A DNA stretch of 64,000 nucleotides. Source: an uncultured Bacteroidota bacterium (GTDB lineage Bacteria > Bacteroidota > Bacteroidia > JABEUT01). Under the pieces are notes generated by a model. That model searched no databases. It saw only the letters and a list, made by a program, of their open reading frames with translations, and had not been told where the DNA came from. Position 1 is the stretch's first letter, and every line of letters starts with the position of its first letter. A program made the position numbers and the translations under genes. Below, piece after piece: positions 12,943-58,122 of the stretch. The DNA lies in contig CAIWVW010000090.1 in NCBI GenBank assembly GCA_903916255.1, positions 2,229 to 66,228 of the forward strand, written 5' to 3'.

Positions 12943-14277
12943 TTGAAAATGAGACGAGGACCCTTCAGGCTTAAATTTTTTATAAACCGCATAGTAAATG
13001 ATTTGCGGGTTGGGTTTCTTATCCGTCCATTGGTAATTGCTTTGTTAATAGGCGCTGCGGGTATGTATTTATCCACCTTGGAGGAGTGGTATCCGAACAT
13101 GCGGCACTGGATACCTACCATGCTTTTCCCAACTACGCAAGACCCTGCTGTGGCCCAGCTTGTGCTAAGCAATATAGCAACTGCCATGATGACGGTAGTA
13201 TCTATTGTATTTGCCATTCTGTTAATGACGTTAACGCTTGCATCTACGCAATTTTCGCCCCGCATCATTATAAGTTTTGTCCGCGACAGGGTTACCCAAC
13301 AAACCCTCGGCATATTTCTTGGTACGTTTCTTTATTGCCTCGGTTCATTGCCGGCAGCAAGGAATTTCCCAACTGCTTTTTGCCCGGTAGTAACGGTTTT
13401 TGGAGCTATGGTGCTGGCTTTTTTATGTGTTACATGGCTGCTGTTTTTCATTATTCATATTTCACGGGCAGTTAGCGTTACCCATTTGGTAGACCGTATT
13501 GCCCGCGAAACCGAAGAGATGATTATGCAGAACTTGCCTGAAATGCGAAAGGATAATGAGCCGGTTCAGAAAACAGTTCCTCCTGCACACCTTGACCAAA
13601 GCGGAACCCCTGTATTAAGTGAGGCTTCGGGCTATATTTTATTTATAGATACAGATAAATTACTTGCCATTGCCAAAAGCAACGATATCACTATTTACGT
13701 AGTAAGACGGGTAGGGCATTTTGTACCGGCAGGTATTCCGCTTCTTGGAATTAGTGGTAGCGGTAAATTAACACCTGAGTTGGAAAGGTCGTTGAAGAAA
13801 GCATTTCACATTGGCGCAACGCGTACCCTTGACGAAGATATAGAATTTGGAATTTTGCAAATTGTGGATATTGGACTGAAGGCCGTTTCCGCCGCATCGA
13901 ATGACCCAAGTACTGCCATTAATTGCATCGACCAGCTTAGCAGTATCCTTATCCGGTTTGCTATGCACCGTGCGCCACAAACGGATTTTTATTACCCTGA
14001 AAATACCTTGCGCCTTAGTGTTCCCTGGCTGGGTTTTGACCGTATATTGGAATCTGCATTCGAACAAATACGCCTCTATTCGCAAGCTGATGTGGCCGTG
14101 AGTCTGCGTTTGCTGCGTGCATTTATAGATATTGCTTCTACTTTACCGGATAGGGAATCACGTAAATTACTCGTTGAACAAGGTATCCGCCTTGTAAACG
14201 GCTGTTCGGAAAAACTGGCGGAAGAAGTACTGAAAGAAATGCATTCGCGCCTTGCAGCGCTTGAAAAGATGGCATAA
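12943..14277 (+). CDS. DUF2254-family predicted membrane protein
   Basis: 444 aa with N-terminal TM helices (LIRPLVIALLIGAAGMYL, MMTVVSIVFAILLMTLTL, and others) and a large soluble C-terminal domain, the pattern typical of DUF2254. Confidence 0.5.
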   Translation: MKMRRGPFRLKFFINRIVNDLRVGFLIRPLVIALLIGAAGMYLSTLEEWYPNMRHWIPTMLFPTTQDPAVAQLVLSNIATAMMTVVSIVFAILLMTLTLASTQFSPRIIISFVRDRVTQQTLGIFLGTFLYCLGSLPAARNFPTAFCPVVTVFGAMVLAFLCVTWLLFFIIHISRAVSVTHLVDRIARETEEMIMQNLPEMRKDNEPVQKTVPPAHLDQSGTPVLSEASGYILFIDTDKLLAIAKSNDITIYVVRRVGHFVPAGIPLLGISGSGKLTPELERSLKKAFHIGATRTLDEDIEFGILQIVDIGLKAVSAASNDPSTAINCIDQLSSILIRFAMHRAPQTDFYYPENTLRLSVPWLGFDRILESAFEQIRLYSQADVAVSLRLLRAFIDIASTLPDRESRKLLVEQGIRLVNGCSEKLAEEVLKEMHSRLAALEKMA

Positions 14278-14608: not shown

Positions 14609-14614
14609 CGAATA

Positions 14615-14647
14615 CCCGTTTTTACCCGTTATTTCCATAAAAAAATC
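14615..14647. repeat. Direct repeat copy 1 (cccgtttttacccgttatttccataaaaaaatc)
   Basis: About 28 of 30 positions identical to 18978..19008 (gccgtttttagccgttatttccatacaaatc). The pair brackets the SprB-repeat gene plus tRNA-Pro. Confidence 0.6.
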
Positions 14648-14675
14648 CCGCCTAAATAAATATTCAGGCGGGATT
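14639..14675 (-). terminator. Rho-independent terminator downstream of the SprB-repeat gene
   Basis: On the minus strand: aatcccgcc-tgaatatttattt-aggcgggat followed by TTTTTTT. This is an 8-9 bp GC-rich stem. Confidence 0.55.
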
Positions 14676-14697: not shown

Positions 14698-17600
14698 TTA
14701 ATTCATTTTCACCACCTTCTTTTCATCTACCAAGCTGCCATCTTTGCCGAGTATGCGAATCAGGTAAATGCCGTTTGGTTGAGAGGACAAGTCAATTGTG
14801 AATGTTAATTGGTTAATGGTGAATTGTGAATACACCTTTTGCCCAAGGGTATTGTAAACCTCAACTGTCATTTGCCCACTACCCAATGCCGACTGGACAT
14901 TGAAAAGCCCATTGCTGGGGTTTGGGTATATATTCACCGAAGAGCCATTGCCGTTGACAGTAGCCACGCTGCTGGTGTTAGGTATTACCACGCAGACAGT
15001 TTGCGAGCAACCATTTGCATCGGTAACGGTGCAACAATAATCGCCCACACATTCGCCTTTAATGGTGTCGGTAGTGGCACCGCCGGGGCTCCACAGGTAG
15101 GTAAAGGGAGCGGTTCCGCCGCTAACCACTGTAACTGCAGCTTCTCCATTGCAACCACCAATTAAGGTGGAACTGATGGAATCAGCCGAAATAACCATTC
15201 CCGCAGGTTGTGTCAACGTAACCGCATCTATGGCCGTGCAACCATTGCTATCAGTAAGTGTTACCGTATATGTTCCTGCACTAAGGCCGGAAACAGTAGC
15301 ATTAGTACCTCCGCTTGGCGACCATGCATAGGTGTAAGGCAATGTTCCTCCCGAAGGAGCTGTGCTTGCGCTTCCATTGCTGTTTCCAAAGCACCCTGAA
15401 ACGGAAACTCCGCTAACGGCAATACTTAAGGTAGGAGGAAGTGTTATTGTTTCGGATGCGGTAGCTGTGCAACCATTGCTATCGGTGGCGGTAATGGTGT
15501 AAGTTCCAGCACCGAGTGTGGTAATGGTAGTTAGGTTAGTGCCGCCGCTTGGCGCCCAAACATAATTGTAAGGCGGTGTGCCGCCTGTAGCTGCCTGGGA
15601 AGAAATATAACCCATTCCGGCGCAAGCCAGGGTGGTTCGCGAAGCAATGGCAATATACAATGTTGTGCCCGACTGCGTTATAGTTACAGATGCGCTGGCA
15701 GTACATCCATTATTATCGGTTGCATTAATTGTATACGTTCCTGCACTCAGGTTAGAGGCCGTTAAGTTAGTGCCGCCGCTTGGCGCCCAGGCATATGTGT
15801 AAGGCCCTGTCCCGCCACTGGCGGGATTAGCAGTGGCGCTTCCCGAATTGGGAACACATAAAATATTGGTCTGCGATGCAATGTTTATTGCGACCGCCGT
15901 TGCAGGTTGTGTTACAGTTGCAGATGCAGTATCGGTGCAGCCATTGTTGTCGGTTACAGTAATCGTATAGCTACCTGCACTCAGGTTTGATGCGGTAAGT
16001 CCTGTGCCACCGCTGGGGGTCCAGTTATAGGTATAAGGAGCCGTTCCGCCGGAAGCTACAGTTGCGGTAATACTACCTGATGAATTGCCATTGCAGGCCA
16101 CATTGGTAATGGAAGCAATAGAAATTGCCACCCCATTAGCCGGTTGAGATATGGTAACCGATGCCGATGCCGTGCATCCGTTGTTGTCTGTTGCGGTAAT
16201 AGTGTAGCTGCCTGCACTCAGGTTAGATGCGGTAAGGTTTGTTTGTCCGCCCGGATTCCATACATAGGTGTAAGGCAAAGAACCACCGTTTGGCACATTA
16301 GCGGTTGCGCTTCCGTCATCAAGCCCGTTGCAGAGTACATTTATTTCTGAGGCGATAGTAATGGATAACGTATTCGGTTGTGTAATTGTTGCAGATGCTG
16401 TTGCGGTGCAACCATTGTTATCGGTAGCGGTAATGGTATAGGTTCCTGCACTCAGGTTGGAGGCTGTAAGTCCTGTGCCACCGCTTGGTGTCCAATTATA
16501 AGTATATGGGGATGTACCACCATTTGGAATATTCGCGGTAGCCGTTCCCGTAGGGCCGCCATTGCAAAGCACTCCTGTAACTGATTGGATGGTTATTGTT
16601 AATGCATTCGGTTGTGTAATTGTTACCGAAGCAGTCGCGGTACATCCGCTATTATCGGTAGCGGTAATAGTATATGTTCCCGCACTTAGGTTAGAAGCAT
16701 TAAGGTTCGTACCTCCACTTGGCGCCCAGTTATACGTATAAGGAGCCGTTCCGCCGGTGGCTGCATTAGCTGTTGCACTTCCGTTACTGTTTCCATTGCA
16801 AAGCAGGTCCGTCTGCGATGCGATTGTAATTGATAAAGCAGTAGGTTGGGTAATAGTTGCCGAAGCGGTTGCAATACACCCATTGTTATCGGTGGCGGTA
16901 ATGGTGTATGTTCCTGCACTAAGATTAGAAGCCGTAAGATTTGTTCCGCCTGAAGGTGTCCAGTTATACGTATATGGTGTCGCACCGCCAGTGGCTGCAT
17001 TTGCAGTTGCACTTCCTGTAGAGCTGCCATTACAAAGCACATTTGTTTGCGATGCGATTGAAATAGATAATGCAGTTGGTTGTGTAATAGTTGCCGAAGC
17101 TGTTGCGGTGCAACCATTATTATCTGTTGCCGTAATTGTATAGGTTCCGGCACTCAGATTAGAAGCAGTGGGATTTGTTCCGCCGCTCGGCGTCCAGTTG
17201 TAAGTATAAGGTGCTGTTCCGCCGGTGGCTGCATTTGCAGTAATACTTCCGGTGGAAGAGCCATTGCAAAGCACATTGGTCTGCGATGCGATTGAAATAC
17301 CCAATGTTGTGGGCTGTGTAATAGTAACTGAGGTAGTTGTTGTGCATCCCGAATTATCGGAAACGGTAACAGTATATGTTCCTGCACTAAGGGTAGAAAC
17401 TGTTTGCGCGGTATATCCATTCGGGTTCCAGGAGTATGTATAGGGTGTGGCTCCTCCTACAGGGTTTATGGTTGCACTGCCATTTGAATTTCCATTACAT
17501 AAAACATTGGAGTTAATTGTTGCCGTAGCTGTAAGCGTATTGGAAGTTGTCAGCGTAGCAGATGCTGTTCCCATACAACCCGTATGGTCGGTAACAGTAA

Positions 17601-18483
17601 TGGTGTAAGTACCCGCGCTTAAGTTGCTGGCTGTGGCATTTGTTCCACCCGATGGGCTCCAACTGTAGGTATAGGGGGTGGTTCCACCCGATGCGCTTGC
17701 CATAATAGACCCATTGCTGCCGCTACAGGTGGGGTTTGTTGTGCTTGAAATGGTAACGCTTACGCCGCATGGCGGAGGTTGAATGGCAACTAAAATTAAA
17801 GCGGCCCCATAGCTTGAATTGCCATCGGCCGCTGTAACGGTGTAAGAACCCGCAGTAGTAGCACTCGTATATGCCTCACCGGCATCTATACCATTGTTTT
17901 CATGGTAGCCGCCTTCCTCCAGTGCGCCTGTAAATGATAAATCCAATGAACTGTATGACCCTGTATTATATTCCGCAGTGGAGTAAATCATCGAGTTGGG
18001 TTCGGTTGTGGTTATTATATCCGAAACCGAATGGCTGCTTACACCCGTAGTGCTTTGTGTGGTAGTTAAATTAGATAAGCCAAGTGGCGTGCAACTGCCC
18101 GTAGAATAAAAAGCGGAGGCAAAATTCAGATTATACGATGCAGAGAAACCCGTTTCAACCACGACAATAGTATGAACCCCGGCCGCAGGTGCCGAATAAG
18201 CCCAAACCAAGGCTTCTCCACCATCGATAGTGGGAATACTTGAGCTGGCAACCTGCGTTGCAGGATTTCCATCTACCGTAACACTTCCCGTAAATGGCCC
18301 TTCCCATCCGTCGGTTGAAATGAGGATTAATTCATTGGAAAAAGCAGTTGATATAGTAAATGTGCTGGCTCCATTGCCTTGGGCCGACTGGTCATAGTTA
18401 ACGGTTCCATAACATTGCGCTTTTAGCGATGGGCTGATTGCTAATAATAATGCGGCAAATAAGAGTAGTAATGGTTTTCTCAT
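14698..18483 (-). CDS. T9SS substrate: giant cell-surface protein with about 12 SprB repeats and a type A Por/T9SS C-terminal sorting domain
   Basis: Signal peptide is followed by about 77-aa units such as LCNGSSTGSITANAATGGTAPYTYNWTPSGGTNPTASNLSAGTYTITATDNNGCTATASATITQP, which match the SprB repeat pattern. The C-terminus reads NIYPNPSNGLFNV...VEVYNTLGQKVYSQ...GIYLIRILGKDGSLVDEKKVVKMN, a type A CTD. Confidence 0.8.
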   Translation of the reverse strand: MRKPLLLLFAALLLAISPSLKAQCYGTVNYDQSAQGNGASTFTISTAFSNELILISTDGWEGPFTGSVTVDGNPATQVASSSIPTIDGGEALVWAYSAPAAGVHTIVVVETGFSASYNLNFASAFYSTGSCTPLGLSNLTTTQSTTGVSSHSVSDIITTTEPNSMIYSTAEYNTGSYSSLDLSFTGALEEGGYHENNGIDAGEAYTSATTAGSYTVTAADGNSSYGAALILVAIQPPPCGVSVTISSTTNPTCSGSNGSIMASASGGTTPYTYSWSPSGGTNATASNLSAGTYTITVTDHTGCMGTASATLTTSNTLTATATINSNVLCNGNSNGSATINPVGGATPYTYSWNPNGYTAQTVSTLSAGTYTVTVSDNSGCTTTTSVTITQPTTLGISIASQTNVLCNGSSTGSITANAATGGTAPYTYNWTPSGGTNPTASNLSAGTYTITATDNNGCTATASATITQPTALSISIASQTNVLCNGSSTGSATANAATGGATPYTYNWTPSGGTNLTASNLSAGTYTITATDNNGCIATASATITQPTALSITIASQTDLLCNGNSNGSATANAATGGTAPYTYNWAPSGGTNLNASNLSAGTYTITATDNSGCTATASVTITQPNALTITIQSVTGVLCNGGPTGTATANIPNGGTSPYTYNWTPSGGTGLTASNLSAGTYTITATDNNGCTATASATITQPNTLSITIASEINVLCNGLDDGSATANVPNGGSLPYTYVWNPGGQTNLTASNLSAGSYTITATDNNGCTASASVTISQPANGVAISIASITNVACNGNSSGSITATVASGGTAPYTYNWTPSGGTGLTASNLSAGSYTITVTDNNGCTDTASATVTQPATAVAINIASQTNILCVPNSGSATANPASGGTGPYTYAWAPSGGTNLTASNLSAGTYTINATDNNGCTASASVTITQSGTTLYIAIASRTTLACAGMGYISSQAATGGTPPYNYVWAPSGGTNLTTITTLGAGTYTITATDSNGCTATASETITLPPTLSIAVSGVSVSGCFGNSNGSASTAPSGGTLPYTYAWSPSGGTNATVSGLSAGTYTVTLTDSNGCTAIDAVTLTQPAGMVISADSISSTLIGGCNGEAAVTVVSGGTAPFTYLWSPGGATTDTIKGECVGDYCCTVTDANGCSQTVCVVIPNTSSVATVNGNGSSVNIYPNPSNGLFNVQSALGSGQMTVEVYNTLGQKVYSQFTINQLTFTIDLSSQPNGIYLIRILGKDGSLVDEKKVVKMN
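15480..17800. repeat. Tandem array of about 231-bp coding repeats (SprB repeat units) inside the adhesin gene
   Basis: Near-identical DNA repeats are visible, e.g. ggtaaggtttgt...ccgcccgg and similar stretches. They generate the spurious antisense ORFs listed in the track. Confidence 0.6.
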
Positions 18484-18792: not shown

Positions 18793-18867
18793 CGGGATGT
18801 AGCGCAGCCCGGTTAGCGCACACCCTTGGGGTGGGTGAGGTCGCGAGTTCGAATCCCGCCATCCCGA
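18793..18867 (+). tRNA. tRNA-Pro (anticodon GGG)
   Basis: Cloverleaf read by hand. Acceptor cgggatg/catcccg with the C1-G72 pair typical of tRNA-Pro. D arm gcgc-agcccggtta-gcgc. Anticodon stem caccc/gggtg with loop ttGGGgt. T arm gcgag-ttcgaat-cccgc. Discriminator A. No CCA is encoded. Confidence 0.85.
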
Positions 18868-18977
18868 CATTATTTTGAAAAAATTACCAGCCGAATAATA
18901 TTTTACCATCTGTAACGGTTATTTCTGTAAACAGGCCCGCGTAGGCGCTGATTTGCAATCAATGCCCAAATTCCATA

Positions 18978-19008
18978 GCCGTTTTTAGCCGTTATTTCCA
19001 TACAAATC
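18978..19008. repeat. Direct repeat copy 2 (gccgtttttagccgttatttccatacaaatc)
   Basis: Partner of 14615..14647. It lies about 110 bp downstream of the tRNA-Pro 3' end. Confidence 0.6.
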
Positions 19009-19058: not shown

Positions 19059-22007
19059 TTACATATCATCCAAATTTATTGTTGTGAGCCTTTCCATTTG
19101 GGTTACTTCTATATACATAAAATCAAACTCCTCTTTCACTATCCCTTTCAGCAGGTAGCATCCATTCCCCTGAAAGGGATATTGCTTGGCTGCCTGAGGG
19201 AAATGTACCGTATCGAGCCAGTCGCCATTGGTATCAATAAATGTTCCAAAATACATGCGGTCGCCTTTGGCGGTGCGGGTATATTTTACGGTTACCAAAT
19301 ACCCAACAATAGCAACAGGTTTACCGAGCATGGCAGGCAGTTCTTTCGCTGTTAAACTGCTGGGCAGTTTTTCCTGTATAAGGTTAAAGTAGGGGCAAAG
19401 CGGAAAGCCGAGCAACTCGATTTCATCAAAGGCATCGTCCTGCCATTTGTCGGTTAGTTCCGGCAACTTATATTTACGTGCGCCAACATCAAAAAGCTCT
19501 TTGGCCTGATAAGAAACTTTGGCGGGCTTCACCAGCGAGTAGGCTTCCCAAAGCAGTTCTTTTTTATTCTTCCCAATAAACTGAAAAGCGCCTGCCCTGA
19601 TTAATAAACGCAGTTGTTCTATAGAAACCGGAACACGTTTTACGAAATCATCCAGGTTTATAAACGGGCCATTCTGATGGCGTTCTGTAAGCAGGTTTTT
19701 AATAACGGATGCCTCCAGTTCTTTTATCATACTTAAGCCTAAATAAATGTGTTCGCCTGCTATTTCATAAACCGACGAACTGTTGTTTACGCATGGCGGA
19801 TGTATTTTAGCGCCATGCATACGGGCTTCATGAACATAGAGTTCTGTGCGGTAAAAACCGCCGCCGTTATTAAGGGTAGCCACCATATACTCCAGCGGAA
19901 AATAGGCTTTCAGGTAAAGCGCCTGAAAACTTTCCACCGCATAACTTGCCGAATGTCCCTTCGAAAAGGCATAATTGGCAAAACTTTCAATCTGGTTCCA
20001 GATATTGGAAATGGTTTCAGTGGAGTATCCTTTTTTTATACAGTTTTTGAAAAAGTTATCCTTTACCCTGTCGAATTCATTACGCTGCTTGAATTTCCAA
20101 GACATTCCCCGCCTCAGGTAATCTGCCTCAGCCAGAGATAAGTCTGCAAAAAAGTGGGCCACTTTAATCACATCCTCCTGGTAAACCATTACTCCGTAAG
20201 TTTCTTTCAGCAATGCATACAATTCCGGTATTTCGTTCATCGCCTTTTCCCTTGCTTTTTCATCACGGTAGCGCAAAATATATTCCCGCATCATTCCGCT
20301 TTTCGATACGCCCGGGCGAATGATGGAACTGGCAGCCACAAGGCGCAGGTAATCGTCAGCCCGGAGCTTGGCAAGCAACATGCGCATAGCCGGCGATTCA
20401 ATATAAAAACAGCCAATGCATTTGCCGAGTTTTAATAAATTCTGGACTTTTTTGTCGGTTTTAAATTTCTGTATGTCATGAATGTCGATACTAACACCTT
20501 TATTTTTCTTAATGATGGCAAGAGCGTCTTTTATTTTTCCCAGGCCCCGCTGGCTAAGGATATCGAATTTATAAAGCCCAATATCTTCGGCTTCCAACAT
20601 GCTGAACTGTGTGGTAGGATAGCCTTTGGGCGGCATGAAAGTTGCACTGTAACAGGTAATGGGTTCCTGTGAAATAAGTATGCCGCTGGAATGGATGCTT
20701 AAGTGATTGGGAAATCCCTGGATGAGTTTGCTGTAAGTCAGCACCAATTTGCCCAGTGTATCCGGTTTGTTGTTTTCATGCACCGATTGCAGTTTGTCGA
20801 TTTCTTCGGGTGGCAAACCAAACACTTTGCCCAGTTCTCTTATTACGGCATCGTGCTGATAGGTATTGTAAGAGCCCAGCAGGGCGGTGTTTTTATTGCC
20901 AAAGCGTTCAAAAATGTAGCGGGTAATATCATCACGGTCAGTCCATGAAAAATCAACGTCGAAATCGGGAGGGTTGCTGCGCGAAGGATTAATGAAGCGC
21001 TCGAAATATAAATCCAGTTCGATGGGGTCTACATCGGTTATTCTAAGCAGGTAAGCCACCATACTATTAGCACCGCTGCCCCTCCCCACATAATAGTAGT
21101 CTTTACTTTGGGCGTATTTTATAATATCCCAATTGATAAGAAAATAAGAAGCGAATTTCATTTGCGCTATTATCTCCAGTTCTTTTTCCATTCGTTTGAG
21201 CACCTCGTCCGATGGAATTTTGTAGCGGTATTTCAAACCCTCCTCACATTCTTTGCGGAGCAGTTTCAGGTCGCCTTGTAACGTACCTGTATAGTAGGTC
21301 AGGTTTTTATTTGAGAACTTTCCATATTCAAATTCAATATGACATGTATTTAATATTTTTTCTGTATTAGCCTGTATTACCGGATACCCGGAATAGGCCG
21401 CATAAAGTTCCTCTTTGCAGGGTATTGTTTCATCAAGCGTTGCTTGTTCATAGGCAGGCAGTTTGCTCAGCAGAGTATTCAGGCTGATGGCCCTGAGCAG
21501 GCGATGTGCATTAAAATGTTTTTTAGAAATAAAAGATAATGACTGAAGTGCAACCTGTTTTTCCGGTTGTAGTTTGGCAGGGGAGAAAGGCAGCCTTACA
21601 AGGTCTTTCAAGGAAACTCCTATAAATTCATTTCCTCTTAACTTCCATCCTTTATATGTCTGCAAAGGGTATATTATAAATGCATTTTTAAATATTGGAG
21701 CGATGGGCTCAAAATCTTTTTTGCTGTGCAGGTGTTCAGAAAGGTGAATGTTCAGTTCGTTGAAACCTTCATTATTATTTGCTATGCCAACATACTGCTG
21801 ACGGATACCATTCCGGAAATCGATTCCTAAAATGGGTTTTATTCCTTTTTCATTGGCCAGCCTAACCATATCTATGCAGGCGGATGTATTATTAATATCT
21901 GATAATACAAACGAAGTGTACCCCTTTCCTGCTATTTCAGCCAGCAATTCGTTTACCGACAGGGTTCCATAGCCGAAGCTGTAATAGGTATGGCAATTAA
22001 GAAGCAT
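19059..22007 (-). CDS. dnaE2: Error-prone DNA polymerase III alpha-subunit homolog (DnaE2/ImuC-like)
   Basis: 982 aa. N-terminal PHP domain MLLNCHTYYSFGYGTLSVNELL...SDINNTSACID. The core carries the pol III alpha fingers/palm. It is too short for replicative DnaE and sits directly downstream of a Y-family polymerase gene. Confidence 0.75.
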   Translation of the reverse strand: MLLNCHTYYSFGYGTLSVNELLAEIAGKGYTSFVLSDINNTSACIDMVRLANEKGIKPILGIDFRNGIRQQYVGIANNNEGFNELNIHLSEHLHSKKDFEPIAPIFKNAFIIYPLQTYKGWKLRGNEFIGVSLKDLVRLPFSPAKLQPEKQVALQSLSFISKKHFNAHRLLRAISLNTLLSKLPAYEQATLDETIPCKEELYAAYSGYPVIQANTEKILNTCHIEFEYGKFSNKNLTYYTGTLQGDLKLLRKECEEGLKYRYKIPSDEVLKRMEKELEIIAQMKFASYFLINWDIIKYAQSKDYYYVGRGSGANSMVAYLLRITDVDPIELDLYFERFINPSRSNPPDFDVDFSWTDRDDITRYIFERFGNKNTALLGSYNTYQHDAVIRELGKVFGLPPEEIDKLQSVHENNKPDTLGKLVLTYSKLIQGFPNHLSIHSSGILISQEPITCYSATFMPPKGYPTTQFSMLEAEDIGLYKFDILSQRGLGKIKDALAIIKKNKGVSIDIHDIQKFKTDKKVQNLLKLGKCIGCFYIESPAMRMLLAKLRADDYLRLVAASSIIRPGVSKSGMMREYILRYRDEKAREKAMNEIPELYALLKETYGVMVYQEDVIKVAHFFADLSLAEADYLRRGMSWKFKQRNEFDRVKDNFFKNCIKKGYSTETISNIWNQIESFANYAFSKGHSASYAVESFQALYLKAYFPLEYMVATLNNGGGFYRTELYVHEARMHGAKIHPPCVNNSSSVYEIAGEHIYLGLSMIKELEASVIKNLLTERHQNGPFINLDDFVKRVPVSIEQLRLLIRAGAFQFIGKNKKELLWEAYSLVKPAKVSYQAKELFDVGARKYKLPELTDKWQDDAFDEIELLGFPLCPYFNLIQEKLPSSLTAKELPAMLGKPVAIVGYLVTVKYTRTAKGDRMYFGTFIDTNGDWLDTVHFPQAAKQYPFQGNGCYLLKGIVKEEFDFMYIEVTQMERLTTINLDDM

Positions 22008-22016
22008 GGAATAGCT

Positions 22017-23204
22017 TTAGGTTGTTCGCCCGTTAAAGGGATTAAAATCTCCGCGTTGCGATATTTTCATACCCACGGCTCGTTTCACAATATCGCGCCC
22101 GTAGCGGTTGCGCAACTTATCCATGGCCTGATAGAGCTGTATCTGCTCGGCCGTATCGTTAAAAATATCAAACTGGTAATTGCCATGCACCAAATGGCTG
22201 AAACGGATTCCGATAAGGCGGATGAGCATACGTTTCTGGTAAAGTTTGTCGAACAACTCTTTCACTTTATCGATAAGCGTATGGTCGAGCGAGGTATATC
22301 CAATACGCGACTGCATAGTGTAGGTGTTAAAATCTGAATAGCGTATTTTTACCGTTACACAGGATGTTAGTTTCTGTTCGCTACGCAATTGAAAGGCCAG
22401 TTTTTCGGTCATGCTTACCAGCATCGCTTTCAGGTAAGTCACATCTATTGTGTCTTTGTCAAAAGTGTTTTCCGTTGAGATAGATTTACGTTCGCTGTAT
22501 TGTTCCACAGGGCTGTTATCAATACCATTTGCCTTTTTCCATATTAATATACCATTTTCTCCCAGCACTCTTTCCATTAGTTCTATGGGCATGTCCTGCA
22601 TGGTCTTTACTTTTTCTATTCCCATGCTCCGCAGTATATGGTATGTTTTATCACCTACCATTGGTATCTTTTTAACCGACAGCGGAGCCAGAAATCCTTT
22701 TTCCGTTCCCGAACGAATTTCCTTTTGTCCATTGGGTTTGGCTTCTCCTGTGCCTACTTTGGCAACCGTTTTGTTGGTGGATAATGCAAATGAAATGGGC
22801 AGCCCCGTCTCTTTAATGATATTTTTCCGCAGTTCGGTGGCGAGTTTATAGCTGCCAAAAAAGCGTTCCATGCCCGTGAGGTCCATATAAAACTCATCAA
22901 TAGATGTTTTTTCATAAACAGGAACAGTTTCCTTTATAATTTCCGTAACCGTGTCTGAGTATTTGGTATATTGTTCATAGTCGCCCCGCACTATTATCGC
23001 ATGTGGGCAAAGCTGCCTTGCCATGCGCATAGGCATAGCCGAATGGATACCGAACCTGCGGGCCTCATAACTACAAGAAGCTACCACCCCCCGGTCGCTT
23101 GTGCCGCCCACTAATACAGGTTTCCCTAGTAAGGAGCTGTTGTGCAGCCGCTCTACCGATACGAAAAAAGTATCCATATCCATGTGTACAATCGTCCTTT
23201 CCAT
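22017..23204 (-). CDS. dinB: Y-family DNA polymerase (DinB/Pol IV-like, catalytic residues intact)
   Basis: MERTIVHMDMDTFFVSVE carries the catalytic DMD..F.SVE motif. SCSYEARRFGI and GIG..SHL motifs are present. It lies 9 bp upstream of dnaE2, so the two form a cassette. Confidence 0.75.
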   Translation of the reverse strand: MERTIVHMDMDTFFVSVERLHNSSLLGKPVLVGGTSDRGVVASCSYEARRFGIHSAMPMRMARQLCPHAIIVRGDYEQYTKYSDTVTEIIKETVPVYEKTSIDEFYMDLTGMERFFGSYKLATELRKNIIKETGLPISFALSTNKTVAKVGTGEAKPNGQKEIRSGTEKGFLAPLSVKKIPMVGDKTYHILRSMGIEKVKTMQDMPIELMERVLGENGILIWKKANGIDNSPVEQYSERKSISTENTFDKDTIDVTYLKAMLVSMTEKLAFQLRSEQKLTSCVTVKIRYSDFNTYTMQSRIGYTSLDHTLIDKVKELFDKLYQKRMLIRLIGIRFSHLVHGNYQFDIFNDTAEQIQLYQAMDKLRNRYGRDIVKRAVGMKISQRGDFNPFNGRTT

Positions 23205-31728: not shown

Positions 31729-34700
31729 TTGCCCCCAATGATGAAAAAAATATTTATTGCATTTTGCTGCATTATTTCCACTGTTGTTTTTGCCCAGCAA
31801 GGTAAGAATGGCAGCGCTACCATTACAACCACTGTCGAGGTAAATGAATACACTTACCTTACCGCAAATGAAGCTGCCGGGGCTACAACAATAACTGTTG
31901 CCAGCAGTACGCTTAATTCCCATTCGCGTTTTTCGGGCAATTTGGCTGCAGGAGATTTAATTATGATAATTCAATTGCAGGGCGCAACCCTCAACGGAAG
32001 TATTAACCCCGGAAACCGTGATATTGGCCAGCCTAAAGATAGTACCTGGGGTGCTATAAACAACTATAACAACTGCGGTAATTATGAATTTGCCGAGGTT
32101 TCTGCCGTGCCTTCCGGAACAACCATTACATTAGATTGCCCTTTGCAATACAGTTACACTGATACAGGTAAAGTAGAAATAGTAAGGGTTCCAAGGTATG
32201 CTTCGCTGACCATTAATTCAGGGGGAACTATTAGTTGCGACCCATGGGACAGCACCATTGGGGGTATTATTGCCATCGAAGTGCAAGGAAATACGATTAT
32301 CAATTCCGGAGGAGCTATTAATGCAACAGGTATGGGTTTCCGCGGCGGGCAGTATAACGGTGAAGACAGTATAGGCTGGGGTGTTGGTGATGTGGCAGAA
32401 GGGCTGCAAGCCTATGGAAAAGAAAAGGGAGAAGGTGTGGGCGGATATGAATGGAAATATAAAAAATTGGGCGGCAAAGAAGGCATGGGCGCACCGGGCA
32501 ATGGCGGCGGCGGCGGCGATGCGCAAAATGGCGGCGGCGGCGGCGGCGCAAATGGCGGAGTGGTAGCCAATTACATTAACGGGTATGGAAACCCTGACAT
32601 AAGCACAAATAATAATAAAACAGCCTGGGGTATTGAATATACTTGGTTGCCAACCTTTACATCTGCAGGTGGGGGACGCGGCGGTTATACGTTTGGACAG
32701 AATAATGTGAGCCCCCTGACAAATGCTCCCGGAGCAGGCGCTTGGGCAGGTGATGACCGCAGAAGCGTGGGCGGCCGCGGCGGCCGTCCGCTGAATTATT
32801 CTACAGGCAAAATTTTTATTGCCGGCGGCGGCGGTGCAGGCGACCAGAATGATGGTTTTGGCGGCACAGGAGCCAGTGGTGGCGGTATTGTTTACCTTAT
32901 GAGCTATGGAACAGTATCTGGTGCCGGCCAAATAATTTCAAACGGAAATAATGGTGCGAATACGCACGGAACTGCTGCATTTGGCCATGCTGCCGGAATA
33001 GATGGTGCAGGCGGTGGCGGCGGCGGCGGAACGTTAATAGTTAATTCTGTAGGAAATATTTCAGGGATTAGCCTTACTGCAAACGGCGGTACGGGTGGAA
33101 ACCAGGTTATAACATGGAATTTCAGTTCCGATGCTGAATCTGAAGGGCCGGGCGGTGGCGGCGGCGGCGGCTATATAGCCACTTCTAATGCCGGACTTAC
33201 TGAAACCACTACTGGCGGTGCCAATGGCACCAGTAATGCTATTCCCCTTGCCAATTTTCCGCCGAATGGCGCTACAATAGGCGGTGTGGGAACTACCAAT
33301 GCAAGTATTGCTAATTTTTATATTACAGCTAAAAACGATACAATTTGCAGCGGACAAAGCGCGACTTTAACTGCCACCCTGAACGGAACTGTTCCAAACG
33401 GAACAACTATCGAGTGGTTTAGCACTTCAACAGGCGGTTCTTCCATAGGGACAGGGCCATCATATACTACTCCGGCTTTAACCGTGAATACAACCTATTA
33501 CGTTGGCACTTGCCCGGGAACATACCGGATTGCAGTGAACGTGATTATTTCAGGCAGCGCTTCGGTATCTATCAGCCCGAACAAAACGATTTGCAAAGGC
33601 ACTGCCGATTCATTAAAAGCCACAGGTGGAACAGCCTATTCATGGACACCCACCACCGGATTGAGCAATGCCAATATTGCTAACCCGATTGCTACTCCGA
33701 TTGCAACAACAACATATACTGTTAATATAACTACGGCTTGCGGATTAATAAAGGATTCAGTTAAAATTACCGTATCGCCTCTACCAACAGCGACCATCAG
33801 CGCAAGCACCAACCCAATTTGTGCAGGAAAATCGACTACCCTTACTGCAGGCGGAGGTACAGTTTATACTTGGAGCAATGGGGCCACTACATCATCCATA
33901 ACGGTTACTCCGCTTACCACCACTACATATACTGCAGAAGTTAGTAACGGAACCTGCACTAAAGACACTACATTAAAGGTTACCGTTAATCCGCTTCCTA
34001 CGCCTACTATCGGTGCAACTAGTAACCCTATTTGTCCCGGCAGTTCAACAACTATTTCAGTTACAGGCGGCACAAGCTATACCTGGAGTAACAGCGCAAC
34101 TACAACATCTATTACCGTAAGCCCTGCTACAACTACTAATTACTCGGTTATTGTAAGCAATGGCACATGTACAAAAGATACCAATATCACCGTAACTGTT
34201 AGTGCAAGCCCAACGGTAACTGTTAACCCATCTGCGCCCACTATTTGCAGTAATGGCAGCGTGACATTAAATGGGGTAGGAGCCACCACGTATACCTGGT
34301 CTCCTAATACGTCATTAACCTGTACGAATTGTGTTTCCACCGTTGCTACGCCAACGGCCACAACAACATATACCGTTATAGGTGCCAACGCGCAAGGGTG
34401 TACTGATACGAACACAGTAACGGTTACTGTAGGCGGTGCTATTAATGCCCGAATTACAGGTAATGATTCCTTATGCTCAGGCAATTCCGCTACGCTTACC
34501 GCTTCCGGCGGAACAACCTATACCTGGAGCAACGGTGCAACTACATCAATTATTACAGTAATTCCACTTGTAACAACTACATACACTGCAACAATCAGTA
34601 ACGGAATATGTACCAAAGACACCACGTTTAAAATTACGGTTACACCTACGCCTACAGCTTCCATAGCGGCATCTGTCAATCCTATCTGTGCGGGAGAATC

Positions 34701-36690
34701 GTCAACGTTAACAGTATCCGGTGGAACAGCCTACAAATGGAATACAGGAGCCACTACCTCAACACTTACTGTTAATCCGATATCAACAACCACTTACACG
34801 GCTACGGTAAGCAATGGAAAATGCTCAAAAGACACTACAATTACGGTTACCGTAAATACTAAACCCACGGTAACTTTAAATAACCCCGCGCCATCGATAT
34901 GCACAGGCGGAAATGTTGCTTTTGTAGCCAGCGGAGCCAGTAGCTATACCTGGGCGCCAAATACTAATTTGACATGCAACAATTGCCCTAATCCAACCGC
35001 ATCGCCAACGGCGACCACGACCTATACTATAATTGGTACCAATTTGGCTGGCTGTAAAGACACAATCACAGTTACTGTAACGGTAGTAAATACCCTGACA
35101 GCGACTATCAGCCCGCCAAGTGACAGTGTTTGCAATGGAAGTTCCACTACCTTAACCGCGGGCGGCGGCAGTACCTATCTTTGGAGCAATAGCGCAACAA
35201 CAGCAATTATCAATGTAAGCCCGAATGTAAATACTACCTATAGCGTGCTTGTTTCCAGCGGCGGATGTAAGGATAGTGCTACCATAACAGTTAAAGTAAA
35301 TCCACTTCCTGTTGTAGTAATATCGAATGATACCTCTGTTTGTTCCGGAACAAATGTTACGCTGAATGTAAGCGGCGGCGGTACTTATTTATGGAGCAAT
35401 TCAGCAACCACAAGCAGTATAACAGTAAATCCGGCAAATACAACTACATATACCGCGCAGGTAACATCATCCAAAGGATGTTTAAAAGACACGGTAGTTA
35501 CCGTTACCATTAATCCGGCCCCAACATTGACCATAACTCCCACAATGATTTCCTGTGCCGGAACACCTGATACACTTTCTGTTTTGGGAGGTAATGGTTA
35601 CCTATGGAGCAACGGGTCTACCAACAGTACCATTATTGTTAGCCCAATAACCTCTAAAATATATACCGTAACGACTGGTGGTGGCGGCCCCTGCCCTGTA
35701 AGTGCTGTAGATACAGTGAAAGTGAAAGCATTGCCCACCGTAACAACCCAGGGGACAACTTCTGTTTGCAATGGTGATAGCGCAGTAATATTAGCCACAG
35801 GTGGAGGCACATATTCATGGGCTCCCGGAGGAAAAACAACCGCTGAAATAATTGTGTACCCTTCAAGCACTACTATTTATACTGTATCGGTTACAAAAAA
35901 TGGATGCACAAAAATGGATACTTTTCAGGTAGCGCTTAATCCATCACCAAACCCTACCGTAAACCCATCGATTATTACCCTTTGTAAAGGCGAATCTACC
36001 ATGCTGAGCGCAACAGGAGGTACTACTTATTTATGGTCGCCATCCGCTACGCTGAGTGATTCGGTTATTTATAACCCGATAGCTACGCCTTCAGCCAATA
36101 CTACCTATGTTGTAACCGTTGCCAACACCGACGGCTGCACTGCAAAAGACAGCATTAAAGTATTTGTTATTGCAGGAGCAAGCGGCTCTGCCTGTTGCGA
36201 TGCTACTATTGTTCCCGGCGCTTCAGAAACATTATCTGTTTCGGGCGCTAATGCCGGTTCTACCTATAAATGGACACCTTCGGGAAGTTTAAGCTGCGAT
36301 ACTTGTGCTAATCCGATTGCAACACCAAGTACAACCACATGGTATTATGTTACCATTTCGGATGCAAACGGATGCAGCAGGCTCGACTCTCTTTTAATTA
36401 CGGTGAATGAGTCGGGATGCGGAGCAGTATTTATTCCTACGGCTTTTTCACCGGGCCAAATGGCCAACAATATTCTGTATGTGCGCGGCGATTGTATAGC
36501 ATCTATGGAATTCGACATTTTCGACCGTTGGGGAAATAAAGTATTTACATCCACCAACATTAAAGATGGCTGGGATGGCAGCTACCGCGGGCAGGGCATG
36601 AATTTAGGCACCTATGTTTATTTCCTGAAAGCTACCTTGATTGATGGAACCACCATAAATCAGAAAGGTAATGTTACGCTGGTAAGATAG
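31729..36690 (+). CDS. T9SS type B cargo: 1653-aa surface protein with a Gly-rich N-terminal region, about 14 Ig-like repeats and a gliding-motility-type C-terminal domain
   Basis: Signal peptide. Poly-Gly tracts (GNGGGGGDAQNGGGGGGANGG). About 78-aa repeats with the pattern ICxGxSxTLTAxGGxxYxWSNGATTxSITVxPxxTTTYTAxVSNGxCxKDTTxxVTVNPLP. The C-terminus reads VFIPTAFSPGQMANNILYVRGDCIASMEFDIFDRWGNKVF...GWDGSYRGQGMNLGTYVYFLKAT...KGNVTLVR, matching the type B CTD (TIGR04131-like). Confidence 0.8.
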   Translation: MPPMMKKIFIAFCCIISTVVFAQQGKNGSATITTTVEVNEYTYLTANEAAGATTITVASSTLNSHSRFSGNLAAGDLIMIIQLQGATLNGSINPGNRDIGQPKDSTWGAINNYNNCGNYEFAEVSAVPSGTTITLDCPLQYSYTDTGKVEIVRVPRYASLTINSGGTISCDPWDSTIGGIIAIEVQGNTIINSGGAINATGMGFRGGQYNGEDSIGWGVGDVAEGLQAYGKEKGEGVGGYEWKYKKLGGKEGMGAPGNGGGGGDAQNGGGGGGANGGVVANYINGYGNPDISTNNNKTAWGIEYTWLPTFTSAGGGRGGYTFGQNNVSPLTNAPGAGAWAGDDRRSVGGRGGRPLNYSTGKIFIAGGGGAGDQNDGFGGTGASGGGIVYLMSYGTVSGAGQIISNGNNGANTHGTAAFGHAAGIDGAGGGGGGGTLIVNSVGNISGISLTANGGTGGNQVITWNFSSDAESEGPGGGGGGGYIATSNAGLTETTTGGANGTSNAIPLANFPPNGATIGGVGTTNASIANFYITAKNDTICSGQSATLTATLNGTVPNGTTIEWFSTSTGGSSIGTGPSYTTPALTVNTTYYVGTCPGTYRIAVNVIISGSASVSISPNKTICKGTADSLKATGGTAYSWTPTTGLSNANIANPIATPIATTTYTVNITTACGLIKDSVKITVSPLPTATISASTNPICAGKSTTLTAGGGTVYTWSNGATTSSITVTPLTTTTYTAEVSNGTCTKDTTLKVTVNPLPTPTIGATSNPICPGSSTTISVTGGTSYTWSNSATTTSITVSPATTTNYSVIVSNGTCTKDTNITVTVSASPTVTVNPSAPTICSNGSVTLNGVGATTYTWSPNTSLTCTNCVSTVATPTATTTYTVIGANAQGCTDTNTVTVTVGGAINARITGNDSLCSGNSATLTASGGTTYTWSNGATTSIITVIPLVTTTYTATISNGICTKDTTFKITVTPTPTASIAASVNPICAGESSTLTVSGGTAYKWNTGATTSTLTVNPISTTTYTATVSNGKCSKDTTITVTVNTKPTVTLNNPAPSICTGGNVAFVASGASSYTWAPNTNLTCNNCPNPTASPTATTTYTIIGTNLAGCKDTITVTVTVVNTLTATISPPSDSVCNGSSTTLTAGGGSTYLWSNSATTAIINVSPNVNTTYSVLVSSGGCKDSATITVKVNPLPVVVISNDTSVCSGTNVTLNVSGGGTYLWSNSATTSSITVNPANTTTYTAQVTSSKGCLKDTVVTVTINPAPTLTITPTMISCAGTPDTLSVLGGNGYLWSNGSTNSTIIVSPITSKIYTVTTGGGGPCPVSAVDTVKVKALPTVTTQGTTSVCNGDSAVILATGGGTYSWAPGGKTTAEIIVYPSSTTIYTVSVTKNGCTKMDTFQVALNPSPNPTVNPSIITLCKGESTMLSATGGTTYLWSPSATLSDSVIYNPIATPSANTTYVVTVANTDGCTAKDSIKVFVIAGASGSACCDATIVPGASETLSVSGANAGSTYKWTPSGSLSCDTCANPIATPSTTTWYYVTISDANGCSRLDSLLITVNESGCGAVFIPTAFSPGQMANNILYVRGDCIASMEFDIFDRWGNKVFTSTNIKDGWDGSYRGQGMNLGTYVYFLKATLIDGTTINQKGNVTLVR
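33360..36410. repeat. Tandem coding repeats (about 234 bp, Ig-like units) within the type B CTD gene
   Basis: Periodicity visible in the translation. The DNA copies are more diverged than those in the SprB gene. Confidence 0.5.
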
Positions 36691-55941: not shown

Positions 55942-58122
55942 TTAGTTATTCTTAGGCTTGGTTGCATTGTTGTTGTTTGGTGCAGGAGCCTGTTTATTAG
56001 GAGCAGCAGGTGTTTTTACCGGAGGCACGTAATTCCTTTCTTCTTCAGGAACCGGTGCATTGGTAGTATCGGAAGCCTCTTGTCCGCTAACTTTAATCTT
56101 AGAGCCTTCCTGCATCTTTAAACTATCAGCGTGAGTCATCATATGTCCTTTAGGAACATATGTCCAATTGGTAATCTTAAATACAGTACGACGGTTGATT
56201 TGATATAAAGAATCGCGTTTAGCTTTGCTCTTTTCAGCCATAATTTGCTTGGTTTGAATAAGCAGCTTGGTAAAACCCCATCCTTTAGCGGTCAAACGGG
56301 CTGAATCAATACCCTGAGAAATGAGGTAGCTAACGCATGATTCAGCGCGGGCTTGGGAAAGCTTGATGTTGTGGTTATAATCACCCTGTTGGTCAGTATG
56401 AGCATCCAATTCAATAGCCAGTGTTGGGTTATTGTTCAACAATTTCACAAGGTAATTGAGAGAATCCTTTGATTCAGGCTTCAAATCTGCTTTATCCAGG
56501 TCATATAATACGGCAGGGAAGTGAAGTTCTGTAACAGGAGAAGGTTTTTGCAGTTGGAAATCATGTACAAATGTTTCTGATTCTGTTTTTCCTACAGTTG
56601 TTTCATTTGCCTTTTCATCACTGGCAAGGTATTTCAAATCAGTTGCGCTGGCTGAAAGGATATATGAACTGTTAATCTTAACATAACGGTCGTTAGCGCC
56701 TAATGCTCCAAACATATAATGGCCGCCCGTGTCGGTTTTAAGGGAAACATCAGAACCATCAGAACCAACCATGCGAACGGTTGCCCCATTGATTCCTTTG
56801 TGGGTATCCTGGTCATATACTGTTCCTTCAATTACAAAGAGTATTGGGGGTAAATAGAATGAATAAATATCATCGCTTCCTCTTCCCCCGGGACGGTTAG
56901 ATGAGAAATAACCTCTGTCTTTGGTGCCTTCGAATACAATTCCAAAATCATCGCCTTCAGAGTTGATTGGAGAGCCTAAGTTAGTTGGATTACTCCATTG
57001 GTCGGTACCAGTTTTTGCAGCCTTGTAAATATCCAAGCCGCCCATTCCCGGTAAGCCGTCGGATGCGTAATATAAAGAACCATCAGCATGTATATATGGA
57101 AACTCTTCATTTCCGGGAGTATTGATTCCAGGGCCAAGGTTTACAGGATTACCCCATGATTTTGTTTTCTTATCATAGTGGCTCAACCATAAATCATAGC
57201 CTCCTTGTCCGCCGGGCAAGTTCGATGTAAAAATAATTTCTTGTTCGTCTGCTGAAATAGCAGGATGCGAATATTGAATAGTATCTGTTTGGAAATTCAG
57301 CATAACCGGGTCTGTCCAGTTATTACCTCGGCGTTGGGTCGAATAAATTTTACATTTTGGTTGCTTGTTCTTAACAACACCGCAACGGGTAAAATACATT
57401 GTTTTGAAAGACTTGTCGAAAATAGCGGAGCCTTCATTATCGGGAGTGTTAACAGGAGCCGGTAATGGGAGGGGAGCACTGAACTTGCCGTTCTTATCTA
57501 ATTTAGTAATAAAAATATCGGAAAAATTCTGGCCCAATCCATCATCTACTTTATCACCCATAGTTCCCTGGCGGGTTGATGTAAATACGATTTCATCCAT
57601 TCTTCTGTCGGAATAAGCAGGAGAAAAATCTTCAAACTTGGAGTTCAGCTGCGCCATATTGGTAACCACATAGCGGGTAGGCGCATTTTTCAACTGCTGT
57701 GCCAATTGGCATGATTTGATTCCGTTTTGGCCCCTTGGGTCGGAAGGTACCTTTTGGGCATATGATTGATAGGAAGCCAACGCATCGTCATATTTAGCCT
57801 GCATCATTTGTGCATCGGCCATGTAAAGAATGGCTGAAGCATCGTCATAGTTGGCTTTAACAGCTTTTGCATATTCTTCTTCTTCATGTTTAACATCGCC
57901 GGTCATCCGGTAGCATTCGGCTATTTGAAAAATAATACGTGCCTTGTCTTCCTTTTTGGGGTTCTGAGACAATGCCTTCTTGTAAATGTCGATGGCGTTA
58001 TAGTATTCTTTGCTTTTGAAAGCATTATCGCCTGCCTTAATAAAAGCCTTTTGGGCCTTTGTAGTTAGGGCGATGCAGGATACCAATAGAATTAAACTGA
58101 AAGTAGATTTTATTCTTCTCAT
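55942..58122 (-). CDS. OmpA-family outer-membrane protein with N-terminal TPRs, TolB-like beta-propeller repeats and a C-terminal OmpA domain
   Basis: The C-terminus reads ...LYDLDKADLKPESKDSLNYLVKLLNNNPTLAIELDAHTDQQGDYNHNIKLSQARAESCVSYL, an OmpA/MotB peptidoglycan-binding signature, followed by a P/N-rich tail. Confidence 0.7.
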   Translation of the reverse strand: MRRIKSTFSLILLVSCIALTTKAQKAFIKAGDNAFKSKEYYNAIDIYKKALSQNPKKEDKARIIFQIAECYRMTGDVKHEEEEYAKAVKANYDDASAILYMADAQMMQAKYDDALASYQSYAQKVPSDPRGQNGIKSCQLAQQLKNAPTRYVVTNMAQLNSKFEDFSPAYSDRRMDEIVFTSTRQGTMGDKVDDGLGQNFSDIFITKLDKNGKFSAPLPLPAPVNTPDNEGSAIFDKSFKTMYFTRCGVVKNKQPKCKIYSTQRRGNNWTDPVMLNFQTDTIQYSHPAISADEQEIIFTSNLPGGQGGYDLWLSHYDKKTKSWGNPVNLGPGINTPGNEEFPYIHADGSLYYASDGLPGMGGLDIYKAAKTGTDQWSNPTNLGSPINSEGDDFGIVFEGTKDRGYFSSNRPGGRGSDDIYSFYLPPILFVIEGTVYDQDTHKGINGATVRMVGSDGSDVSLKTDTGGHYMFGALGANDRYVKINSSYILSASATDLKYLASDEKANETTVGKTESETFVHDFQLQKPSPVTELHFPAVLYDLDKADLKPESKDSLNYLVKLLNNNPTLAIELDAHTDQQGDYNHNIKLSQARAESCVSYLISQGIDSARLTAKGWGFTKLLIQTKQIMAEKSKAKRDSLYQINRRTVFKITNWTYVPKGHMMTHADSLKMQEGSKIKVSGQEASDTTNAPVPEEERNYVPPVKTPAAPNKQAPAPNNNNATKPKNN

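Follow-up and report, generated by a model that had tools for sequence, protein, structure and literature searches.

A probable stalked SprB-repeat protein with a type A T9SS sorting domain and an unannotated head domain in an uncultured Bacteroidia lineage

Is a gene dominated by tandem SprB repeats the locus of a giant, recombination-prone gliding filament, or does it encode a surface protein of another kind? The gene considered here lies in a 64-kb stretch of DNA (the window) from an uncultured lineage of Bacteroidia that has so far been met in metagenomes only. We propose, with a probability of about 0.65, that its product is a C-terminally anchored stalked adhesin that is exported as type A cargo of the T9SS. 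The complete coding sequence (CDS) specifies, in this order, a signal peptide, a head, 12 SprB units, a linker and a type A C-terminal sorting domain (CTD) (Table 1); in translation the reading frame is unbroken through all 12 units, and the identical protein is present on six or more contigs from independent assemblies. The description of this protein as giant is overstated, since other SprB-repeat proteins found in our searches have 2000-7400 aa, as against 1261 aa here.

Table 1. Position and basis of the features of the adhesin locus in the window.
Feature	Position	Strand	Basis or remark
Complete CDS, 1261 aa + stop	14698..18483	(-)	ORF list + translation
Sec signal peptide, aa 1-22 (MRKPLLLLFAALLLAISPSLKA)	18418..18483	(-)	Read by eye from sequence
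N-terminal head, aa 23-236 (214 aa), unannotated all-beta two-lobed sandwich	17776..18417	(-)	Predicted structure
Stalk, 12 tandem SprB-type Ig-like units, aa 237-1170	14974..17775	(-)	PF13573 + motif anchors + unit alignment
Central, most similar units R3-R8, aa 392-860	15904..17310	(-)	TRF + pairwise DNA identity
T9SS type A C-terminal sorting domain, aa 1185-1261	14701..14931	(-)	TIGR04183, PF18962
Intrinsic-terminator-like hairpin, 14-bp stem + T run	14644..14675	(-)	23 nt past stop codon

The signal peptide, called by eye, consists of a basic n-region (MRK), a hydrophobic core and the sequence SLKA followed by Q, with cleavage predicted before Q23. This residue is invariant in the 19 family members that were aligned, and a Gln at the predicted mature N-terminus fits the Bacteroidetes 'Q-rule'. 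At the opposite end, the anticipated type A CTD was confirmed: TIGR04183 matches aa 1185-1255 with 80.6 bits (cut-off 23), Por_Secre_tail (PF18962) matches within aa 1185-1258 with an E-value of 5.7e-28 and 97.4 bits (cut-off 27), and the domain resembles the solved T9SS CTD chain 8glk_D. The type B model TIGR04131 found no match in the protein, the other CTD match being that of a type C model below its threshold. Export by the T9SS is a well supported prediction from these scores. The core T9SS genes gldKLMN, sprA, porU and porV do not occur within the window, and we therefore infer their presence elsewhere in the genome. The window does contain a gene for a PorE-like protein (55942-58122) with TPR, PD40, CarboxypepD_reg and OmpA domains, the architecture given for PorE in PMC12773672, and a gene for a second T9SS cargo, whose CTD is of type B (CHU_C; 31729-36690).

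Between these two export signals, the predicted series of about 12 SprB repeats of 77 aa was recovered: 12 units, each 77-79 aa long, follow one another directly, and the motif P[YF][TN]Y.W anchors them from aa 270 to aa 1126. PF13573 (SprB) matches 11 stretches of the array (E 9.8e-84; 275 bits against a cut-off of 28), and the repeats also cross-match Big_7, Big_9 and PKD-like families in Pfam. Each unit has two conserved Cys residues about 51 positions apart. Over its 934 aa the stalk contains 1 Lys, 1 Arg, 20 Asp and 4 Glu; it is thus almost without basic residues, and Thr, Ser, Ala, Gly and Asn are abundant. A profile built from the 12 units matches Ig-like domains of phages with known structures (9occ, E 1.2e-6; 5lxk; 8zvi), and because of this match by sequence the SprB unit can be regarded as an Ig-like domain of the phage whisker/decoration type.

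The DNA of the array had been described as a set of near-identical, highly similar copies, and here the result is quite different. Units R3-R8 are the only portion of the stalk that repeat finders detect as a DNA tandem array: Tandem Repeats Finder reports just four copies (16352-17298, period 234, 75% matches), and in a second repeat search the copies are 60-86% identical to its reference copies. Pairwise DNA identity within R3-R8 is 64-80%, the best pair (R3/R4, codon-aligned) sharing 79-80% of its DNA as against 91% of its protein sequence, and all unit pairs average about 53-59% (about 59% in the codon-aligned comparison); no exact direct repeat within the CDS is longer than 24 nt. For the closest units pS is 0.56-0.8, which is near saturation, with a pN of 0.08-0.2, and pS is at least 0.56 for all unit pairs. 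In relatives, the maximum DNA identity between units is likewise only 75-83%. Read from these substitution patterns, the units are old duplicates, in which the likeness of the protein would have been held by purifying selection while the synonymous sites were scrambled; the array should therefore be genetically stable and unambiguous to assemble.

Such near-saturated synonymous sites and short exact repeats argue against a recent expansion and against an array prone to expansion, contraction and recombination, as the original prediction had it. In its strongest form this idea makes the array a hypervariable, recombination-prone contingency locus, the unit number of which shifts from strain to strain. 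The 90% cluster comprises four sequence variants (nine contigs, independent assemblies), each of which encodes 1261 aa, a small and probably short-read sample in which strain-to-strain length variation is absent. Some remodelling is nevertheless evident at greater distance. The 73%-identical ortholog P0008 has 11 units, exactly R7 (aa 704-782) being missing, and R3-R8 have no one-to-one orthologs in it, which indicates past duplication, loss or conversion; in addition, the variant P0155 carries the substitution P438L, which shifts R3 towards the sequence of R4. From the absence of R7 and the lack of one-to-one orthologs it follows that remodelling of the array did take place, over a long stretch of evolutionary time. 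A difference in copy number was seen only in this 73%-identical relative, so that unit number varies between species-level relatives (12 versus 11 units) and not among close variants. Considering also that inter-unit DNA identity peaks at 80% and that relatives, too, reach only 75-83%, we judge a contingency locus to be very improbable.

Assembly collapse, which had also been feared, left no sign. The same CDS, but for one synonymous SNP, is given by three independent assemblies: an ENA scaffold, a contig of MEGAHIT style (k141) and a Logan contig. Repeated k-mers do not exceed 24 nt, and the array is therefore resolved by any de Bruijn assembly that uses a k above this length. Assemblers and samples that are independent of one another concur, the frame is intact across the units, and the ortholog has the same organisation on a 423-kb contig, the name of which suggests nanopore polishing. 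An artefact in which units were collapsed or expanded could appeal to the general risk that attaches to repeats and to the fact that every source is a metagenome assembly; against the agreement just described, we find it scarcely credible. The importance of the locus as first proposed is thus limited, the protein being neither giant nor unstable. What it offers instead is a clean case of a repeat stalk with units up to 91% alike in protein and saturated synonymous sites. Such arrays are trustworthy in short-read assemblies, and repeats in a protein are not by themselves a reason to flag a collapse.

The gene was further described as encoding a gliding or adhesion filament subunit exported by the T9SS; the export stands on the CTD scores given above, whereas the gliding half of the description fares poorly. 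The neighbours of the gene are tRNA-Pro, imuB-dnaE2 (IMS-family polymerase, DnaE2), DUF2254 and feoAB (FeoA, FeoB), and no PorP/SprF-like, sprC or sprD gene is found among them. A gliding adhesin like SprB or RemA, moved by the gliding machinery, would be in keeping with the SprB-type repeats, with the type B CTDs of some proteins that share the same head and with a GldD lipoprotein gene located about 4 kb from the ortholog (locus L010), on account of which the lineage probably glides. However, the protein lacks the type B CTD as well as the neighbours named above, and a type A CTD swapped onto SprB abolishes its helical movement (PMC12618676). The repeats themselves are shared by thousands of T9SS cargo proteins that are otherwise unrelated (13,916 clusters at E <=1e-3 in one search, 6755 matches at E <=1e-50 in another) and are therefore not diagnostic of gliding. 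We thus consider a role as gliding adhesin improbable and, judging by its sequence, the protein is not an SprB ortholog. Proteins combining SprB repeats with a T9SS CTD number thousands, and the present one is an ordinary addition to this very common class.

The gene looks monocistronic, with the hairpin listed in Table 1 behind its stop codon and the next downstream gene (DUF2254, 12943-14277, plus strand) in convergent orientation. A scan for sigma-70 promoters was uninformative: it returned counts equal to the shuffled expectation, and Bacteroidota promoters differ. A 25-nt direct repeat flanks the gene together with tRNA-Pro (14612-14636 and 18975-18999). We rejected its interpretation as the att sites of an inserted island: the motif is missing at the syntenic locus of the ortholog, which retains the tRNA-adhesin pair, and it also turns up in 40 unrelated stretches of metagenome DNA, where 43 of 44 copies are intergenic and the flanks differ. 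A scan of genome contigs recovered relatives at 42-47% identity in Bacteroidia MAGs.

How would a stalked adhesin of this kind reach the surface? Following passage through Sec by means of the signal peptide, cleavage would expose Gln23 as the new N-terminus, and the protein would fold in the periplasm, where the two conserved Cys of each repeat could pair as a disulfide. [quoted passage not shown] The twelve Ig-like units may form a rod of roughly 40-50 nm, displaying the two-lobed beta-sandwich head away from the cell for putative ligand binding. Type A CTDs make use of PorV and lead to anchoring or release, whereas SprB's type B CTD directs cargo to the gliding track (PMC12618676). In Flavobacterium johnsoniae, the type A outcome depends on the individual CTD, that of AmyB leading to release and that of RemA to both anchoring and release (PMC12618676). 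The same protein, exported in the same way, might thus be released as a soluble or vesicle-associated binding protein, and no sequence feature tells this outcome from anchoring. In P. gingivalis, by contrast, type A cargo becomes covalently attached to A-LPS, according to two reports (PMC8545088, PMC9143113), and a rigid stalk of 12 domains, which would hold the head far from the anchor, seems best suited to a surface-attached fibre. We therefore regard release as rather unlikely and retain the anchored, stalked adhesin as the preferred reading.

The most informative part of the protein is the head, which the original prediction had passed over. Its structural model, computed from a 19-sequence alignment, is a confident (pLDDT 91) two-lobed beta-sandwich; an earlier model from a 5-sequence alignment was set aside (pLDDT 58). 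Sequence searches of the head against Pfam, PHROG and PDB gave nothing significant, with no PHROG profile match better than E 0.01, and neither the whole protein nor any one of the 19 heads matched a lectin family. The head is nonetheless a recurrent N-terminal module, found in at least 18 proteins with 1 to about 20 SprB units and with type A or type B CTDs. Head-bearing proteins were taken to be matches spanning profile positions 1-297, and the family count is therefore a lower bound; the exhaustive profile search was flooded by SprB matches, since two rows had contributed their first SprB unit to the profile positions. The family is rare and was found only in uncultured Bacteroidia. When orthologs are compared, the head proves to have diverged more than any other region, with 60% identity as against 71-87% for most units.

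Fold comparison unraveled a likeness that the sequence searches did not. The whole 214-aa head model superposes on phage minor tail proteins in BFVD (E 4e-14 to 1e-7, TM 0.55-0.70, about 225 columns), with 110 BFVD matches at E <=1e-3, and at the level of single lobes it matches fibre-tip, TNF, C1q and BclA-type domains. The double jelly roll of PRD1 P3 was also considered; a Foldseek TM of only about 0.25 against PDB was not taken as a relationship. The head probably binds a ligand, although it may be enzymatic instead. It is possible, if doubtful, that the head represents an undescribed receptor-binding family, restricted to a few uncultured Bacteroidia, having its entire fold in common with minor tail proteins from actinobacteriophages and from uncultured tailed phages, and shuffled onto SprB stalks of widely differing length and onto type A as well as type B CTDs. 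Were this the case, bacteria and phages would share one binding module for a cell-surface ligand, for example the polysaccharide of other microbes, and the family could be a modular T9SS system of fibres with an exchangeable address tag. The new information from this locus thus resides in the head, an unannotated and confidently modelled family with a phage tail-protein-like fold, which provides a concrete target for asking which ligands the T9SS adhesins of uncultured freshwater Bacteroidia recognise.

Among known systems, the protein shares with SprB of F. johnsoniae, the gliding adhesin from which PF13573 takes its name, the same Ig-like unit, with the motif GG..PY.Y.W ... AG.Y.V.V.D..GC, and SprB is likewise T9SS cargo forming a long surface filament. 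SprB has about 6500 aa, however, and is about five times longer; it also has a type B CTD (TIGR04131), depends on an adjacent SprF shuttle and is encoded in a sprCDBF cluster, and none of these features accompanies the 1261-aa protein. Moreover, the CTD of SprB loads it onto the helical gliding track (PMC12618676). RemA of F. johnsoniae and other type A surface proteins, such as the A-LPS-anchored cargo of P. gingivalis, resemble it in having a CTD recognised by PorV, a similar size and a binding module combined with spacer domains; they are anchored or released after CTD processing. The binding module of RemA is a lectin domain (PMC12618676), whereas the present head matches no lectin or other Pfam family. 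The phage minor tail proteins (from Mycobacterium and Gordonia phages and uncultured Caudovirales) resemble the head over its whole length in fold, both structures being predicted, but have a sequence identity of only 13-22% to it; they belong to a virion tail and not to a bacterial T9SS cargo. Finally, the Ig-like domains found in neck whisker and decoration proteins of phages (9occ, 5lxk, 8zvi; Hoc 3shs) share the pattern GG.aPYtY.W ... aG.Ytvtv.D with the stalk units (E 1.2e-6 to 4e-5). In those phage proteins one domain or a few sit on the capsid, whereas the stalk described here is composed of 12 tandem units, each with its conserved Cys pair.

The adhesin gene (14698-18483, minus strand) is a single uninterrupted ORF of 1261 aa; the short plus-strand ORFs lying antisense within it are taken as shadows of the long frame, and its 3' end carries its own strong terminator hairpin. 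Pfam searches recovered the SprB repeat (PF13573, E 9.8e-84, 11 stretches) and Por_Secre_tail (PF18962, E 5.7e-28), while NCBIfam assigned the C-terminal sorting domain (CTD) to the type A family (TIGR04183, 80.6 bits for a cut-off of 23) and gave no match to a type B sorting domain. This CTD is similar to a solved T9SS CTD (8glk_D). The twelve units (R1-R12) are each marked by an anchor P[YF][TN]Y.W, at aa 270, 347, 425, 503, 581, 659, 737, 816, 894, 971, 1049 and 1126. The ORF, the anchors and the two sets of domain matches thus bear out the original prediction in its coordinates, in the number and length of the units and in the names of both domains.

Layout of the adhesin and positions of other features in the window
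Feature	Position	Strand	Remarks
Signal peptide	aa 1-22		MRKPLLLLFAALLLAISPSLKA, then Gln23
N-terminal head domain	aa 23-236		214 aa
Twelve tandem units	aa 237-1170		77-79 aa each
Linker			14 aa, between last unit and CTD
C-terminal domain	aa 1185-1261		
tRNA-Pro(GGG)	18793-18868	+	divergent from adhesin gene; pairing kept in 73%-identical relative
imuB-like Y-family polymerase (IMS) + DnaE2 error-prone polymerase cassette	19059-23204	-	
Second large T9SS cargo	31729-36690	+	1653 aa; Ig_7 (CHU_C-associated) + CHU_C type B sorting domain
PorE-like protein	55942-58122	-	726 aa; TPR, PD40 (WD40-like), CarboxypepD_reg, OmpA
25-nt motif	14612-14636 and 18975-18999	- (both)	partial third copy 18902-18933

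The units had been described as near-identical at the DNA level, a description that their divergence contradicts. The closest pair, R3/R4, shares 80% DNA identity and 91-92% protein identity (in register), DNA identity averaged across the 66 pairs is 53% without gaps and 59% when codon-aligned, and the longest exact direct repeat in the whole CDS is 24 nt. Tandem Repeats Finder reported only four copies (234-nt period, 75% matches, 16352-17298), and a second repeat search grouped the array into families with 60-86% identity between each copy and the reference copy. By the Nei-Gojobori method, pS and pN are 0.56 and 0.08 for the closest pair, and pS averages 0.74 between units. Synonymous sites are near saturation and the protein sequence is kept by purifying selection; the units are old duplicates with no recent expansion, and the array leaves hardly any sequence on which homologous recombination could act or, at any k above 24, an assembler could go wrong.

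Nor is there any sign of the predicted hypervariability and risk of assembly collapse. The exact protein occurs in several independent assemblies (a 76-kb ENA scaffold, a k141-named contig and a Logan contig), whose CDS is separated from that of the window by one synonymous SNP, and the 90%-identity cluster comprises four variants from nine contigs, each 1261 aa long, with 1-6 substitutions between them. One of these variants (P0155) has five substitutions within six CTD residues (NQLTFT to HNSPFI, aa 1224-1229), which a compensated frameshift or a small conversion tract could explain, and also P438L in R3, bringing R3 closer to R4. Length differences are seen only in relatives beyond this cluster: the 73%-identical ortholog P0008 has 11 units and lacks precisely R7, and P0164, with about 60% identity, has 1335 aa. 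R1, R2 and R9-R12 each pair clearly with a single orthologous unit of P0008, and R3-R8 all share one P0008 unit as best match, which indicates that the middle of the array has been remodelled since the lineages split. The three proteins compared have a maximum unit-to-unit DNA identity of only 75-83%, and their longest exact repeats measure 24-50 nt.

The head domain has no match in Pfam or NCBIfam. A search of 5.8 billion proteins by word index returned four relatives, all fragments, and an exhaustive profile search found at least 18 proteins that begin with it and continue with between 1 and about 20 SprB units, sometimes also with other Ig-like domains; the proteins end in a type A CTD in P0008, P0017, P0083, P0104, P0120 and P0126, and in a type B CTD in P0046, P0053 and P0086. 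Among 185,579 species genomes the head is encoded at only six loci (42-47% identity), each of them in a MAG of uncultured Bacteroidia or 'Bacteroidetes'. An AlphaFold2 model built from a 19-sequence alignment is confident and all-beta, with 16 strands (pLDDT 91.2, pTM 0.87). Foldseek gave no convincing fold match in the PDB; against predicted viral structures it gave 110 matches at E <=1e-3, among them matches over the full length to minor tail proteins from Mycobacterium phages, Gordonia phages and uncultured tailed phages (E 4e-14 to 1e-7, TM 0.55-0.70). At the sequence level no link to PHROGs, Pfam or PDB was found. The head is also the least conserved region relative to P0008 (60% identity, against 71-87% for most units). 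Ligand binding is its most likely role, given that it lies at the far end from the anchor, is reused as a module and has a fold like that of fibre tips.

In the proposed scheme, the protein would first be exported by Sec and cut by signal peptidase I before Gln23, a residue invariant in the family alignment; under the Bacteroidetes Q-rule, pyroglutamate formation is expected at this position. After folding in the periplasm, the type A CTD would direct translocation by the T9SS and be removed, the new C-terminus becoming the attachment point. Taking 3.5-4 nm per domain, the twelve Ig-like domains would then make up a rod about 40-50 nm long, displaying the head to the surroundings. Release of the protein into the medium is the chief alternative to anchoring: type A CTDs are handled by PorV, with surface anchoring or release as the CTD-dependent outcome (PMC12618676).

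The neighbours of the adhesin gene (tRNA-Pro, the imuB-like/dnaE2 pair, DUF2254, feoAB) are unrelated to motility or secretion. Elsewhere in the window, no PorP/SprF-like gene was seen adjoining the second cargo among the ORFs scanned, and the domains of the PorE-like protein make up the four-domain architecture given for the T9SS component PorE (PMC12773672). Synteny is partly conserved at the P0008 locus (L010, on a 423-kb contig), which has in common with the window a TonB-dependent receptor, DUF4249, a pyridine-nucleotide oxidoreductase, MORN and the divergent tRNA-Pro(GGG). The imuB-like/DnaE2 cassette, which sits between receptor and tRNA-Pro in the window, is absent from the otherwise syntenic L010, where the receptor directly adjoins tRNA-Pro and adhesin; the cassette has been gained or lost between relatives. 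Directly downstream of the ortholog, an RVT_1 reverse transcriptase (L010 13910-15064, 384 aa) takes the place of the DUF2254/feoAB genes.

A 25-nt motif, GGAAATAACGG[C/G]TAAAAACGG[C/G]TAT, with an internal direct repeat AACGGnTA at 10-nt spacing, follows both dnaE2 and the adhesin gene at about 60 nt from the stop codon, thus bracketing adhesin and tRNA-Pro. The motif also occurs outside this locus, in 40 metagenome stretches (L012-L051) whose flanks are unrelated, and 43 of 44 cases are intergenic; AAAAATGTAC often precedes it, and it frequently falls just past a terminator or between convergent genes. It has no Rfam match and may represent either a dispersed intergenic element or a site for protein binding. 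One population variant (L002 9477-9640, versus L001 9426-9640, equivalent to window ~18870-18960) lacks 51 nt between motif and tRNA-Pro, a segment holding a degenerate extra motif copy.

Searched as a profile, the units match Ig-like domains of known structure from phage neck-whisker and decoration proteins, conserved motif included (9occ, E 1.2e-6; 5lxk; 8zvi), and the Pfam cross-matches of the protein are exclusively to Ig-like families. The stalk is rich in Thr, Ala, Ser, Gly and Asn, with 1 Lys, 1 Arg, 20 Asp and 4 Glu among its 934 residues, and each unit contains a pair of Cys spaced by about 51 residues. At 1261 aa the protein does not deserve the term 'giant', and of the earlier interpretation the T9SS cargo with SprB repeats stands, but the gliding filament role does not. 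The protein joins a very common class, in which the unannotated head is its only feature of some interest. Given its type A rather than type B CTD, and the CTD rules of PMC12618676, it is a type A T9SS cargo with SprB-type Ig-like spacers and not an ortholog of SprB.
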